This document shows positions 1,514 to 8,306 of a stretch of DNA of 32,000 nucleotides, one piece after another; the first letter of the stretch is position 1, and each line of letters starts with the position of its first letter. A program made the position numbers and the translations under genes. Location: positions 3,706,688-3,738,687 of the forward strand of contig CP178758.1 in assembly GCA_047651235.1 (NCBI GenBank), given 5' to 3'. Under the pieces are notes generated by a model that was given only the letters and a program-made list of their open reading frames with translations, did no database searches and was not told the origin of the DNA. The stretch is from Candidatus Electrothrix yaqonensis (GTDB taxonomy: Bacteria; Desulfobacterota; Desulfobulbia; Desulfobulbales; Desulfobulbaceae).

Positions 1514-4488
1514 ACAATGTCTGTGTGACCCTTGCCTCCCTGCAACTGATCAAGCAGGTGGATCTGACCACGGATACTGCTCCGGAAGATGCAAGCAAGG
1601 ACGATATCATAACCTACACATTCAGGGTGCGGAATACCGGTGCTGAAACGCTGACGGACGTGACTGTAAGCGACCCGCTGCTCACCGGCTTGAGCTGTGA
1701 TCCCATTCTTTCCCTTGCCCCGGGTACAACGGTGGACTTCAACTGTACAGGGGGCAACACGTATACGATTACGCAGCTAGATGTGGATAATGGCTATATC
1801 GACAACACGGCTACAGCCACGGGAACGCCGCCGTGCGGGCCTGATGTGACCTCTTCCGTCGTAGCCCGCGTGAATATCGGCACTACTCCGACCTATGCCG
1901 TAGTGAGTTCATTCAGTGCGTATTTAAATGATAAAAATCAGGTGGTGCTGGAATGGAAGACCTCCAGTGAAACCGGTACGGTCGGTTTCATGCTGGAGCG
2001 GCAGAATGAGCGGACCGGCAGATATCAGCCGGTCACGAAAAAAATACTGCCCGGTATGCTGACTCCGCCGCACGGCGGCATCTACCGCCTTGTGGATACA
2101 AGAGCAAAAGCGGGTAAGCAATATACCTACCGGGTTGTCGAAGTAGCGGCCAACGATCAGGGCACGGTTTCCGGGCCGTACACGGTGCAGGCCGATGAAC
2201 CTCTGCCGAAGAACAGCCGGATGTTTTCCGGCGGGGCCGGAGGCTACACCCTGACGCATCATAAATTTTCCGGCAGACAGTTCAGGCGTTTTACAGCCCG
2301 CAGTAAAGTGCTCCGTAAATTCGCTGCAAAGCGGAAAAACAGGGCCGGTACCGTGCTGAAGATTCCGGTCTCCCGGAACGGTTTGGTGTATTTGAGCGCT
2401 GCGGAGCTGGCAGCCGCCTCCGACCTTCCGGAGAAGCGGGTGATCAGGCAGGTGAAGTCCGGAAGATGCCGGCTGACCCTGGCAGGGAAGGCTGTTCCGC
2501 TGCTCAGGGCCAATACCGGTTCCGACCTCTGGTTCTACGGCCGGGCTCCGGAGCGGAGCGACATCGGACAGAATATCTACCTTCTCGATTTCGGGAAAAA
2601 AGGCAAGAAAATGAAGAGTACGCGGGGCCGGGCAAAGAAGGAAGTCTCTGCGGAGCAGTCCTACCCCGCCCGTGTGCGTGCAGAGGAGAATCTGCACCCC
2701 TTCCACCTGTATATCAATACTCCGGTGCATGATTTCTGGGCCTGGGAACTCCTGTTCGCTCATGATGCCGCCGATGATCCGGCGGGCAGTACTGCTGTTC
2801 ATCCTGTTGCCGCGCCGTATCTGACAGGGGAGGGCGATGCGGCGGTTACGGTCAACTTGGTCGGAATGACAGGCCGTGGACCTGCCGGAGTGCCGCTGTA
2901 CAAGGTGACAGTCTTTCTGAACGGCACGGATATCGGCACGGCGGAATGGTCGGAAAAGGGCGACTATCAGTTCCGGGCCGATATCCCGGCTGCTCTGCTG
3001 CGTGAGGAGGGCAATGAAGTACAGGTCGTTTCGCAGCTGAACAGCGGCGTGACCTACTCGCTGATCTACCTAGACTCCATTGAGCTGGAGTATCTGCGCA
3101 GCTACGAGGCGGTCGATGGAGAGCTGACCTTTTCCGACGCCGGATATGACAGCGTGACGGTCCGGGGGTTCAGCAGCAGCAAGGTGCTGGCCCTTGATGT
3201 GACAACGCCGGATGCGCCTCGGCGGGTACGGACCCTGCCCGGTAAAAATCAGGCCGGAGAATATACGGTCACTCTGCTGACCGAGCCGGGGCATACGTAC
3301 TTTGTCACGGAAAATCTCAGCCCTGTCTTTGCCGGAGAGCTGAGTGCGGACACGCCGTCGCGGCTGCGCAGGCGCTATAACCGGGCTGATTATCTGATCA
3401 TTGCGCCGTTGCATCTGATGGAGTCGGCACAGCGGCTTGCTGATCACCGGGCATCTGAAGGCCTGAAGGTCATGCTTGTCGATATCGAGGATGTGCAGGA
3501 TGAATTCAGCCACAGCCTGGCGGCTCCTGAAGCGGTGCATGACTTCCTGTCCTATGTCTATACAAACTGGATTCAGGTGCCCCCGCATGTGGCTCTGGTC
3601 GGTGCCGGATCCTATGATTATAAAAACTACCTTGGTTACGGCTATCCCCTTGTGCCGGCCAAGCTGGCAGCAACCCCTGACGGTTTCTTCCCGTCCGACA
3701 ATGTCCTGGCGGATGTTGTCGGCAATGACGGGGTGCCTGAATTTGCGATAGGTCGGATACCTGCGGTGGACAGCACCGAGCTTGACCGCTATACTGAAAA
3801 ACTGATACACTTTGAACAGGATCAGGCGGAACGCGACACCGGTACGGTAATGACGCTGGTGACGGATATGCCTGATCCGTCTGCCGGAGATTTTGCGGCC
3901 GGTGCGGACAGAGTTGCGGAACTGGTGTCGGCACAGGGAGTTGCGGTCAACCGGCTTGCCGCAGATGCGCTGGGTGTGAACGGGACGCATGACGGGATTA
4001 TCAATGCGCTGCAGCAGGGAGGCGGCATTCTGCATTATATCGGTCACAGCTCGATGGTGGCCCTGGGCCGGAGCAGTGCGCTGCTCACTGCAGATGAAGT
4101 TGACGCCATGCCCGATATCGGTGTGCCTATGCTGATGGTCAGCATGACCTGCTCTGCCGGGGCCTTCGGCTATCCGCCCATGGACAGTATCGGCGAGACC
4201 GCAGTGCTGCGGGCGGACGGAGCAGCGGTGGGCTTTTTCGGGGCCTCCGGTCTGTCCGAAAACCATCTTGCCGACATAATGGCGAAAGGCTTCTACCGCA
4301 GCCTGTTTGATCCGGAGAATGTGAACCCGAGGATCGGCGATGCAGTTGTCGGCGCGAAACAGTATTATTCTGCTCAGGGCGGGGAACGGTCCGTTCTGGA
4401 TATTTACAATCTGCTCGGTGATCCGGCACTGCACGGGCCGGTTGCAGTACCGGACAATAAACCAACGGACAAGATCAGGACGGATTGA
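1..4488 (+). CDS. Large secreted/surface protein, 5'-truncated by the window edge. It contains tandem DUF11-type (conserved repeat domain) modules with Asp-rich thrombospondin-type-3-like inserts, an Fn3-like domain, and a C-terminal peptidase C25 (gingipain-like) domain.
   Basis: Frame 1 is open from nt 1 to TGA 4486-4488, so the M at nt 25 in the ORF track is a caller artefact. [46 protein letters not shown] is a DUF11-type signature. [25 protein letters not shown] is TSP3-like. The C-terminal part (ADYLIIAP...GRIPA...HYIGHSS...SMTCSAG) fits the C25 His/Cys dyad context. Confidence 0.85.
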   Translation, partial: [1495 protein letters not shown]

Positions 4489-4784
4489 TGGTGCAGCTCG
4501 ATAGTATTTACAGACAGGCCGACAATATCGTCACCCGCAGGATTATGGATGAAACCCTGCTGGTGCCCGTTTCCGGTGAGCTTGCCTCCATGGAGGAACT
4601 GTATACCCTCAATGAGACCGGGGATTTCATATGGCAGGCGTTGGACGGCGTTCGTCCTCTTTCCGAGATCAGGTGCCAGCTTGAAGAGCAGTATGACGCA
4701 CCGGCAGAGGAGATTGAAGCGGATCTGCTGGAAATCATAAGCGGGCTGGCCGATGCCGGGCTGGTTACTTCTGTTGGAGGATGA
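4488..4784 (+). CDS. PqqD-family protein (RiPP recognition element / peptide chaperone)
   Basis: About 98 aa, and the motif run IVTRRIMDETLLVPVSG...LYTLNETGDFIWQALDG..PLSEI...L.EQYDAP.EEIEADLLEII..L...GLV is typical PqqD architecture. ATG 4488 overlaps the upstream stop (TGATG), with an alternative TTG at 4485. Its stop overlaps the rSAM start (ATGA at 4781-4784). Confidence 0.85.
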   Translation: MVQLDSIYRQADNIVTRRIMDETLLVPVSGELASMEELYTLNETGDFIWQALDGVRPLSEIRCQLEEQYDAPAEEIEADLLEIISGLADAGLVTSVGG

Positions 4785-7780: not shown

Positions 7781-7829
7781 ACTGGCTCCTTTTTCTGCCT
7801 GCGATGATCAGTCGGCAACAGCAGCCTCT

Positions 7830-8306
7830 ATGAGTGTGTCATCCGTTATCAGTATCCGGGATCAGGGTGCGCTTGATCTGGTACGCTCTCTGCTGAAACA
7901 GGGAATATCTGTCCGCATCCGGGTTTCCGGCAGCTCTATGCGGCCGCTGCTCAGCGGTGGAGAAATCATTGAAGTGGCTCCCCCTGCAGCCCGATCACCC
8001 AAAATTGGGGAGATCCTTTTGTTCTATGATCAGCAGGGGAACCCGCTCGTTCATCGCCTGATCAGACGTCGTTGTTGCAACAAGGTCCTTTATCTGCAGA
8101 CCAAGGGTGATGCCTGCGCAGGTTGTGATGGTTTTATTCCGGCAGGGCAGGTTCTCGGCCGTGTTCAGCGTATCATTATCAAGCATAATACTATTGATCT
8201 GCAGCACCCGGTCATGCATTTTCGTTCCTTCTTTATTGCTCTCCGAAGTCTGATATTGTATTATTATCTGCAGTTCTGCAATAGACTGTCTTCTGCATCT
8301 GATTAA
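7830..8306 (+). CDS. S26-family signal peptidase I, ER/archaeal (SipW-like) type
   Basis: VSGSSMRPLLSGGEIIEV carries the catalytic Ser motif (GxSMxP). GNPLVHRLIRR carries the conserved His of Ser/His-type S26B enzymes. There is a C-terminal hydrophobic segment, FFIALRSLILYYYLQF. Alternative starts at 7737, 7740 and 7743 would overlap the preceding gene. Confidence 0.7.
   Translation: MSVSSVISIRDQGALDLVRSLLKQGISVRIRVSGSSMRPLLSGGEIIEVAPPAARSPKIGEILLFYDQQGNPLVHRLIRRRCCNKVLYLQTKGDACAGCDGFIPAGQVLGRVQRIIIKHNTIDLQHPVMHFRSFFIALRSLILYYYLQFCNRLSSASD

Follow-up and report, generated by a model that had tools for sequence, protein, structure and literature searches.

In paeninodin-type lasso peptide clusters (those of PadeK, ThcoK, SyanK and BsfK), a stand-alone PqqD protein, a precursor with a YxxPxL leader and an HPr-kinase-like kinase are found together. 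For the HPr-kinase homologues of lasso clusters, the site of phosphorylation is the C-terminal Ser of the still linear precursor (PMC8498205), and YxxPxL is the conserved leader motif of lasso precursors, located at positions -17 to -12 (PMC10368454). In the maturation of sactipeptides and ranthipeptides, a second group of peptides that are made by the ribosome and modified after translation (RiPPs), enzymes such as SkfB, AlbA, CteB and PapB combine a radical S-adenosylmethionine (SAM)/SPASM architecture with three Fe-S-binding Cys groups, a RiPP recognition element (RRE) and a Cys-containing core peptide. The mycofactocin and pyrroloquinoline quinone (PQQ) pathways (MftA/B/C/E and PqqA/D/E/F) bring a PqqD-type chaperone, a radical SAM/SPASM enzyme and a peptidase to bear on a small peptide of which the C-terminal end is conserved. 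SynChlorMet (ScmC TIGR04249, ScmD TIGR04248, ScmE TIGR04250, ScmF TIGR04251), which has been catalogued bioinformatically and is uncharacterised, joins an HprK-like protein to a PqqD homologue and a PqqE-like radical SAM/SPASM enzyme. Here we describe a six-gene cassette in a 32-kb stretch (contig CP178758.1, hereafter the window) of the genome of a cable bacterium, Candidatus Electrothrix yaqonensis, which shares parts with each of these systems and, judged from its sequence, probably represents a new RiPP family that has its leader, recognition protein and kinase family in common with the kinase-type lasso clusters.

In order of transcription, the cassette encodes a secreted protein that ends in a Peptidase_C25 domain, a PqqD-family protein, a radical SAM/SPASM enzyme, a peptide of 48-65 amino acids, a P-loop kinase-like protein with the HprK/phosphoenolpyruvate carboxykinase (PEPCK) fold and an S26B-type serine peptidase. 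As a whole it behaves like an RRE-dependent radical SAM RiPP pathway, yet by the features that define them it falls outside the lasso, SynChlorMet and mycofactocin/PQQ systems and the curated families of sactipeptide/ranthipeptide maturases, as well as outside PorU and the membrane signal peptidases. Compared to the paeninodin-type clusters, the cassette is without B2 protease and cyclase and has the radical SAM/SPASM, S26B-like and C25 proteins instead, and its core peptides hold conserved Cys residues rather than a ring-forming Asp or Glu. Unlike in sactipeptide and ranthipeptide maturation, the RRE is a separate protein and not the N-terminal domain of the radical SAM enzyme, there is no C39/ABC exporter, a kinase, an S26 and a C25 enzyme are added, and the NCBIfam maturase models stay below their cut-offs. 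Mycofactocin and PQQ differ in that the cassette core is Cys-based, a kinase and a C25 enzyme are present, and no cofactor-dependent dehydrogenase is co-conserved. With regard to SynChlorMet, ScmC is the best NCBIfam match of the window kinase, and for the Nitrospira homologues ScmD is the best match of the PqqD protein and ScmE the third-best of the radical SAM enzyme; however, all four scores lie below the cut-off (ScmC 34 against 125 bits, ScmD 24.9 against 100, ScmE 61.9 against 400, ScmF 65.2 against 400), and the cassette has one radical SAM gene instead of two, next to a C25 gene, an S26 gene and an identified precursor. The C25 protein is secreted and carries an aligned His/Cys dyad like PorU and the gingipains, but it occurs outside Bacteroidota, fused to DUF11/adhesin-like repeats and coupled to RiPP enzymes. 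Similarly, the peptidase possesses the Ser, His and Asp boxes of the S26B signal peptidases (SEC11, the archaeal enzymes and Bacillus SipW), with SEC11A/C as best match in both sequence and fold, but it is unanchored and its proposed substrate is a RiPP leader instead of a Sec signal peptide. No description of the cassette was found in open-access papers and preprints, a search that left the subscription literature aside and whose outcome is therefore no proof of absence. The open-access literature likewise yielded no paper on SynChlorMet, and two surveys of RREs mention neither the kinases nor the S26 and C25 enzymes.

The cassette is conserved as a unit. A genome scan with an alignment of the kinase retrieved 49 loci (numbered from L001 onward), the gene content of which was determined by tblastn with the window proteins. 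All six genes are present in the same order in 26 of these 49 independently fetched genomes, a recurrence that goes beyond chance. Complete cassettes are found in Desulfobacterota (all cable bacteria included), Nitrospirota, Verrucomicrobiota and Acidobacteriota, and cassettes that keep five of the six genes or are truncated by the contig end, which add at least four phyla, in Planctomycetota, Aminicenantes, Anaerolineales, Lentisphaerae and a metagenome-assembled genome (MAG) of Ectothiorhodospiraceae. Among the 33 loci with at least 6 kb of upstream sequence, the C25 gene is present in 30, directly upstream of PqqD, the PqqD and radical SAM genes each in 32 and the peptide in 31, with order and strand kept, so that the upstream C25 gene belongs to the conserved unit. 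An S26-like gene follows in 35 of the 43 loci with enough downstream sequence. A preliminary description of this locus, made from the letters of the window, had predicted that undescribed homologous loci exist and had proposed co-conservation of the small open reading frame (ORF) as a check; such loci are indeed numerous, and the ORF is found in 43 of the 48 in which 400 nt or more precede the kinase gene. When all flanking ORFs were clustered, no further conserved family emerged, and neither an exporter or transporter, nor an immunity gene, nor a lasso B2 or C protein was among them. Two loci (L028 and L034) have the PqqD, radical SAM, peptide and kinase genes without a C25 gene within 7 kb; in L028, from Planctomycetota, C25 and S26 genes are both missing nearby and the neighbours are uninformative.

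Within the cable bacteria, the cassette is being duplicated and is diversifying, as follows from second precursors in Electronema and from doubled genes in two further loci. In Electronema, the second precursor lies between the PqqD and radical SAM genes (L003 5447-5638, L005 5477-5629, L007 3052-3234, L008 5410-5568 and L010 3424-3582); L004 has two kinase genes with two precursors and L011 two C25 genes with two precursors.

The 62-aa peptide of the window matches no Pfam or NCBIfam family, and a word-indexed homology search returned only the peptide itself and one close relative; the family came from scanning the fetched loci, which provided an alignment of 45 small ORFs from between the radical SAM and kinase genes, 44 of them full-length. 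A Y..P.[LVIF] leader motif is present in all 44 full-length peptides. The leader is conserved as YxxPxL…(A/E)(D/E)(Q/E)VL, the first Cys is fixed at Y+19 or Y+20, and the stretch between the Cys residues is variable. Outside the cable bacteria the pattern reads …YEKPRLRxIELxAEEVLAxGCK-x13-15-C-x4-C-x3-5-GS, with three Cys residues, and in the cable bacteria …LFADQVLxxC-x5-9-C-x6-8, with two. Within the core, conservation is highest at the C-terminus: 39 of the 45 peptides end in Ser and 26 in GS. The terminal Ser of the Cys/Ser tail noted in the preliminary description is looser in the cable bacteria.

The residues ahead of the first Cys are also constrained. In the 28 peptides from outside the cable bacteria, position -1 relative to this Cys is G, S or A in 27 and position -3 is A, G or V in all. 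Small residues at -3 and -1 are the classical pattern for S26 signal peptidases, and the A-x-G|C site of these peptides would therefore fit removal of the leader by the cassette peptidase. With the spacing of the lasso YxxPxL motif, the core would begin about three residues ahead of the first Cys. Core length is about 17-27 residues. A lipoprotein-type lipobox at L-A-x-G|C was considered and rejected, since the leader is acidic and hydrophilic, unlike a Sec signal peptide.

The PqqD protein matches Pfam PF05402 with 61.3 bits (cut-off 23.4) and stays below the cut-offs of the NCBIfam PqqD, lasso-B1 and ScmD models, the lasso_PqqD models giving 24-26 bits for cut-offs of 70-80. The radical SAM enzyme matches Pfam Radical_SAM with 79.9 bits. 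Its C43/C47/C50 triad and a further seven Cys residues (C281, C299, C338, C341, C347, C350 and C369) are conserved in 33-34 of 34 homologues, so that the C-terminal clusters earlier called SPASM-like amount to the complete seven-Cys pattern, despite the lack of a match to the Pfam SPASM model. Compared as a profile to the PDB, the enzyme finds SkfB (7.6e-29) and PqqE (1e-21) as its best relatives, followed by CteB (3.5e-13) and SuiB (7e-12), and the anaerobic sulfatase-maturating enzyme (anSME) at merely 3.5e-5. By these profile scores it groups with the peptide-modifying enzymes and not with anSME, which answers the grouping question raised in the preliminary description. None of the NCBIfam radical SAM families is reached at its cut-off: the top models are AhbD (101 bits) and NirJ2 (93 bits), both with cut-offs of 500, and MftC (83.9 against 265), PqqE (56.2 against 381), StsB (74 against 625), AlbA (65 against 850), PapB (60.5 against 340) and SkfB likewise fall far short. 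Among the relatives, L026 is the one that has lost the radical SAM gene and still shows a recognisable peptide; this peptide is without Cys, which fits the Cys residues being the targets of the radical SAM enzyme.

The kinase-like protein (ACL93V_17175, 100% identical to the window protein and named 'hypothetical protein' at NCBI) is likewise distant from the curated families. Besides the ScmC match given above, HprK_rel_A (28.7 against 200 bits) and HprK_rel_B (27.9 against 200) are weak, and Pfam Hpr_kinase_C is not matched, the precomputed family being PF27840. Its identity as an HPr-kinase-like protein is nevertheless supported by structure: with the AlphaFold2 model (predicted local distance difference test, pLDDT, 88.7), Foldseek retrieves ATP-dependent PEPCK at about 1e-6 and HprK/P (1knx, 2qmh, 1ko7) at about 1e-4. 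In the Walker A motif GKST is invariant, the surrounding residues vary little or not at all, and S-[DE][DE]-R comes next. A full profile search at E<=1e-30 puts the size of the kinase family at 2,038 cluster representatives (50% identity).

This same kinase family occurs in genuine lasso clusters. Locus L026, from a gammaproteobacterial MAG, encodes a lasso B2 protein (69 bits against an NCBIfam cut-off of 33), an asparagine-synthase-type enzyme that matches the lasso cyclase model best, a methyltransferase and, as a second kinase, an HprK-like protein. Encoded on its opposite strand are a PqqD protein, a precursor whose leader contains YEKPRL, and a kinase that shares 33% identity with the window kinase. 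Locus L015, from another gammaproteobacterial MAG, has a cyclase homologue with 66% identity to that of L026, and over both loci the kinases share 33-34% identity with the window kinase. L026 and L015 are thus lasso clusters that contain the kinase family of the window. A tblastn search with the L026 B2 protein found nothing in the window, and its sole matches among the loci were L026 itself and, in L025, a B2-like fragment at the locus edge; with the L026 cyclase, only L026 and L015 were found, and neither the window nor any radical SAM-containing locus. The preliminary description, which had noted the absence of a lasso cyclase, is borne out in this respect, and its idea of a hybrid between lasso and radical SAM pathways is supported by the YxxPxL leader and by the kinase family held in common with L026 and L015. 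In L025 (an Anaerolineales MAG), a second PqqD gene and the lasso-B2-like fragment lie at 6-537 on the minus strand, about 1.4 kb upstream of the cassette C25 gene; this locus edge may belong to a neighbouring lasso cluster.

Of 30 homologues of the S26B-like peptidase, at least 29 retain the GxSMxP, HR, GD and D boxes; S36, H75, D94 and D100 are invariant, the last two in a TKGDxxxxxD box. Its profile finds SEC11C in the PDB (7e-12), and its AlphaFold2 model (pLDDT 91.8) is closest to SEC11A/C in Foldseek, with template-modelling scores of 0.52-0.56. The NCBIfam sigpep_I_arch model (cut-off 51.85) gives 41.2 bits for the window peptidase and 73.6 bits for the homologue of Nitrospira japonica. 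The earlier reading as a signal-peptidase-type enzyme stands for sequence and fold, but not for the membrane anchor of a true signal peptidase: a 19-residue segment with a Kyte-Doolittle mean above 1.6 before the catalytic Ser occurs in 0 of 30 homologues, and the N-terminus of the model has only a short amphipathic helix. Without such an anchor, the peptidase is most simply soluble and cytoplasmic, and it probably acts as a cytoplasmic leader peptidase. At the other end, the model shows one helix of 30 residues (127-156) that is moderately hydrophobic and contains many Arg residues, with transmembrane-like hydropathy in the cable-bacterial peptidases of L009 and L013; this predicted helix could serve for attachment to the inner face of the membrane or for oligomerisation.

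The sixth conserved gene encodes the C25 protein, with 222.5 bits to Pfam Peptidase_C25 and 266 bits to DUF11. The NCBIfam T9SS_sortase (PorU) model, with a cut-off of 420, scores 171.6 bits for the window protein and 274.1 bits for its Nitrospira homologue, the likeness to PorU spanning about 500-620 residues and reaching beyond the catalytic domain. The candidate catalytic residues His1341 and Cys1376 are conserved in 33 of 35 homologues and align with His211/Cys244 of gingipain R, and a signal peptide is seen wherever the N-terminus is captured. PorU, to which the C25 region is closest among named proteins, is sortase-like and able to ligate the C-termini of its cargo to peptide amines (PMC4560394), which makes a role of the C25 protein in ligation or anchoring conceivable; yet the PorU models remain below cut-off and no export route is encoded. 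Genes of the type IX secretion system are not conserved in the cassette flanks, and most of the hosts are not Bacteroidota.

Short hydrophobic tails with basic residues behind them form the C-termini of the secreted proteins that cable bacteria encode after the cassette (for instance …VSLVPVYYLLLLK, …LIPVYKLLLLK and …NWVLFMPAIIAK), and the choice-of-anchor J protein of the window is without such a tail. From their sequence, the tails look like an undescribed C-terminal sorting tag, and the proteins that carry them could be substrates of the C25/PorU-like enzyme. Inside the C25 gene, the first part of the window consists of 3.4 copies of a 441-bp unit (100% identity), with one DUF11-type module per unit, reflecting either a very recent expansion or a collapse or duplication in the assembly; the 3.4 copies are those within the window, which opens in the midst of the array.

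Starting from this gene content, these motifs and folds and their co-conservation, we consider it moderately likely that the cassette matures a ribosomally made peptide that is Cys-crosslinked, Ser-phosphorylated and trimmed of its leader. By homology, the PqqD protein would bind the YxxPxL leader of the 62-aa precursor and present the precursor to the partner enzymes. The radical SAM/SPASM enzyme would then introduce intramolecular crosslinks via Cys (here Cys45 and Cys54; three Cys residues in most other phyla), most plausibly thioethers of the sactipeptide or ranthipeptide type. The kinase might phosphorylate a Ser of the linear precursor, the C-terminal Ser being the likeliest target in analogy to the lasso kinase clusters, and leader removal beside the first Cys would fall to the soluble S26B-like peptidase in the cytoplasm. 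The secreted C25 protein, of which the gene is translationally coupled to PqqD, could act last, on or together with the product.

Several observations weigh against this scheme. All of the chemistry is proposed by analogy, and because the radical SAM enzyme and the kinase lie far under every curated NCBIfam cut-off, family membership does not reveal the type of reaction. As the kinase served as the search bait, the co-occurrence figures hold for loci in which it is present, and the association of a Cys-less peptide with the loss of the radical SAM gene comes from a single locus, L026. With regard to phosphorylation, the C-terminal Ser is not universal: 6 of the 45 main peptides have another ending, and in cable bacteria it is missing from 4 of 15 main peptides and from 3 of the 6 second copies, the other three ending in Ser; moreover, one lasso kinase phosphorylates an internal, non-terminal Ser (PMC10368454). 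In the cable bacteria, Leu is the usual residue three positions ahead of the first Cys (11 of 15), unlike in a signal-peptidase site, which makes the cut site there uncertain. Finally, the cassette is without an exporter, though the C25 protein is secreted and the other enzymes look cytoplasmic.

The lack of an exporter, together with that of an immunity gene, also speaks for the best surviving alternative, which we regard as possible, though on the doubtful side: instead of yielding a free natural product, the cassette may serve the secreted C25 enzyme, either in its maturation or by supplying its partner. The modified peptide would then be a dedicated C25 ligand and could act as inhibitor or latency factor, as small subunit, or as the nucleophile or anchor that a PorU-like transpeptidase attaches to surface proteins at their C-termini. 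A parallel is offered by QhpC, the small subunit of quinohemoprotein amine dehydrogenase. In favour of such a partnership, the C25 gene equals the genes of the RiPP enzymes in conservation (30/33) and is translationally coupled to PqqD; the partnership is also in line with the retained catalytic dyad, with the resemblance of the C25 region to PorU, which can ligate cargo, and with the hydrophobic tails of the cable-bacterial neighbours, which could be sorting signals. Against it, the cassette provides no membrane route for the peptide, the PorU models reach only 171.6 and 274 of 420 bits, no candidate cargo is encoded nearby outside the cable bacteria, and L028 and L034 have no C25 gene within reach; besides, a role as C25 partner is compatible with the RiPP reading rather than opposed to it. 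Taken one step further, the cassette would be a new, widespread RiPP class whose Cys-crosslinked, Ser-phosphorylated peptide is the dedicated partner of a PorU-like C25 transpeptidase. Freed of its leader in the cytoplasm by the soluble signal-peptidase homologue, the peptide would reach the envelope, where the C25 enzyme would join it to surface proteins or anchor them by means of it, in a peptide-based system of sorting or anchoring outside Bacteroidota. We consider this more specific proposal unlikely; in the cable bacteria, the secreted proteins encoded alongside, with their …PVYxLLLLK and NWxLFxPAII tails, would then be the cargo.

Rather improbable, in our view, is that the peptide gives rise to a small redox cofactor, as happens for PQQ and mycofactocin, in which case the C-terminal …C-x3-5-G-S is modified and excised and the kinase adds a phosphate handle. 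The grammar of PqqD, radical SAM/SPASM enzyme and peptidase is common to both cofactor pathways, PqqE is the second-best solved relative of the radical SAM enzyme and the mycofactocin maturase is among its top NCBIfam matches, the C-terminus with its frequent GS ending is the most conserved core part, and exporter and immunity genes are lacking here as well. However, the MftC and PqqE models fall far below their cut-offs, the fixed Cys spacing with variable residues in between is typical of crosslinked peptides and not of excised cofactors, the C-terminus is variable in the cable bacteria, no dependent oxidoreductase is co-conserved in the flanks, and the secreted C25 partner would be left unexplained. 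A lasso system whose B2 and C proteins are encoded elsewhere in the genome, with the radical SAM enzyme merely tailoring its product, would account for the YxxPxL leader, the PqqD-type B1-like protein and the kinase family of true lasso clusters; it is nonetheless very unlikely, as neither B2 nor cyclase was found in the window or in the radical SAM-containing loci (bar the B2-like fragment at the edge of L025), 26 genomes keep the S26 and C25 genes in fixed order, and most of the aligned cores, by inspection, do not have the acidic residue that a macrolactam ring would need at a distance of 7-9 positions from the cleavage site inferred ahead of the first Cys. That the small ORF is no substrate at all, and that the radical SAM enzyme matures a protein in the manner of anSME (for example the adjacent C25 enzyme, which has a catalytic Cys) or acts on a tetrapyrrole, as the top NCBIfam models AhbD and NirJ2 might suggest, is the least credible of these alternatives in the light of AhbD and NirJ2 scores of about one fifth of the cut-offs, of an anSME match of 3.5e-5 compared to 7.6e-29 for SkfB, and of the presence of PqqD in 32 and of a peptide with RRE-type leader in 31 of 33 loci.

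The layout of the locus is given in the Table. The observation on which this work builds is real, and all the junctions, motifs and ORFs that it lists are in place: the TGATG and ATGA junctions that couple the C25, PqqD and radical SAM genes, the CNFRCVHC motif of the radical SAM enzyme, the 62-aa ORF between the radical SAM and kinase genes, the P-loop APSGTGKST and the GSSMRP and LVHRL motifs of the peptidase. Corrections concern gene boundaries and extent. The kinase starts not at 6150 but at the TTG codon at 6240, behind the stop codon of the peptide ORF, which is not overlapped; homologues begin just ahead of a conserved SxGG motif; the peptidase starts at the annotated ATG at 7830 (158 aa) and not at 7737. 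The operon had been drawn too short by omission of the co-conserved C25 gene, and the choice-of-anchor J gene between kinase and peptidase had been overlooked. Long minus-strand ORFs (for instance 3070-4434 and 6435-7052) were rejected as antisense shadows, all conservation being on the plus strand.

Table. Coordinates of the cassette genes, their key sites and neighbouring features in the window.
Feature	Position	Strand	Remarks
441-bp repeat array	1-1514		3.4 units inside C25 gene
C25 gene, 3' part	25..4488	+	DUF11/DUF7507 repeats, PorU-like region, C-terminal Peptidase_C25; window starts within gene
Candidate catalytic His1341	4045-4047	+	
Candidate catalytic Cys1376	4150-4152	+	
TGATG junction	4486-4490	+	TGA stop of C25 gene and ATG (4488) of PqqD gene
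PqqD-family RRE, 98 aa	4488..4784	+	Pfam PqqD; NCBI XOF33696.1 'PqqD family protein'
ATGA junction	4781-4784	+	couples PqqD to radical SAM gene
Radical SAM/SPASM enzyme	4781..5941	+	
CX3CX2C motif (CNFRCVHC)	4907-4930	+	
Seven-Cys SPASM region	5621-5887	+	
Precursor peptide, 62 aa	6041..6229	+	NCBI XOF33698.1, hypothetical protein
YEKPRL leader motif	6116-6133	+	
Cys45	6173-6175	+	
Cys54	6200-6202	+	
C-terminal Ser62	6224-6226	+	
HprK/PEPCK-fold P-loop kinase-like protein, 311 aa	6240..7175	+	
Walker A APSGTGKST	6765-6791	+	followed by S-E-E-R
Choice-of-anchor J protein, secreted	7211..7780	+	NCBIfam NF038128, 41.2 bits (cut-off 30); XOF33700.1
S26B-type (SEC11/SipW-like) serine peptidase, 158 aa	7830..8306	+	XOF33701.1 'S24/S26 family peptidase'
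Catalytic Ser36	7935-7937	+	
Catalytic His75	8052-8054	+	
Promoter-like site	8511-8539		TTTACA-17 nt-TATAAT
CarboxypepD_reg/SdrD_B-domain secreted protein	8586..9344	+	Pfam CarboxypepD_reg, 59 bits; tail ...VSLVPVYYLLLLK
IS701-family transposase remnants	9510-10445, 13729-14144		NCBIfam NF049921, partial matches
Polysaccharide-biosynthesis island	~10450-23020		

Two genes of the region are accessory to the cassette. Homologues of the choice-of-anchor J protein are found solely in the Electrothrix loci L001, L006 and L012-L014, and CarboxypepD_reg homologues follow the peptidase gene in 11 of the loci L001-L014, in cable bacteria only. Scans of positions 4000-9800 for promoters and terminators gave counts near the shuffled expectation, with a single strong promoter-like site, a near-consensus sigma-70-like sequence (11 of 12 positions) ahead of the CarboxypepD_reg gene, which may therefore be transcribed apart from the cassette. 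The downstream edge of the cassette region is marked by decayed and fragmented transposase genes of the IS701 family, which lie within an island for polysaccharide biosynthesis that encodes a Polysacc_synt flippase, a WecG/TagA transferase, a GT1 enzyme, a GH26 enzyme and a UDP-glucose dehydrogenase, next to several ORFs without a family match. Its low GC content (26-35% at about 12-19 kb, compared to 50-63% in the cassette) suggests a foreign origin of the island. In the clustering of flanking ORFs, these downstream features were not conserved with the cassette outside the cable bacteria.

If the proposed reading is true, the cassette would define a RiPP family not described before and common among environmental bacteria, its kinase family alone counting 2,038 clusters, and it would illustrate modular exchange between RiPP classes, with a radical SAM crosslinking enzyme where the lasso clusters have a protease and a cyclase. 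It would further include, to our knowledge, the first case of a soluble signal-peptidase homologue as RiPP leader peptidase, and we know of no earlier genetic coupling between RiPP enzymes and an enzyme of the gingipain/PorU type. No evidence was found that ties the cassette to electrical conduction, and a link to the nickel/sulfur conductive fibres was discarded, as the cassette is equally present in non-cable phyla and no data point to metal handling. The alignment of the precursors provides a ready set of candidate substrates. The hosts include cable bacteria and Nitrospira, the envelope biology of which is of wide interest, and the coupling to a C25 enzyme gives a hint of a cell-surface role, as opposed to that of a classical antibiotic.

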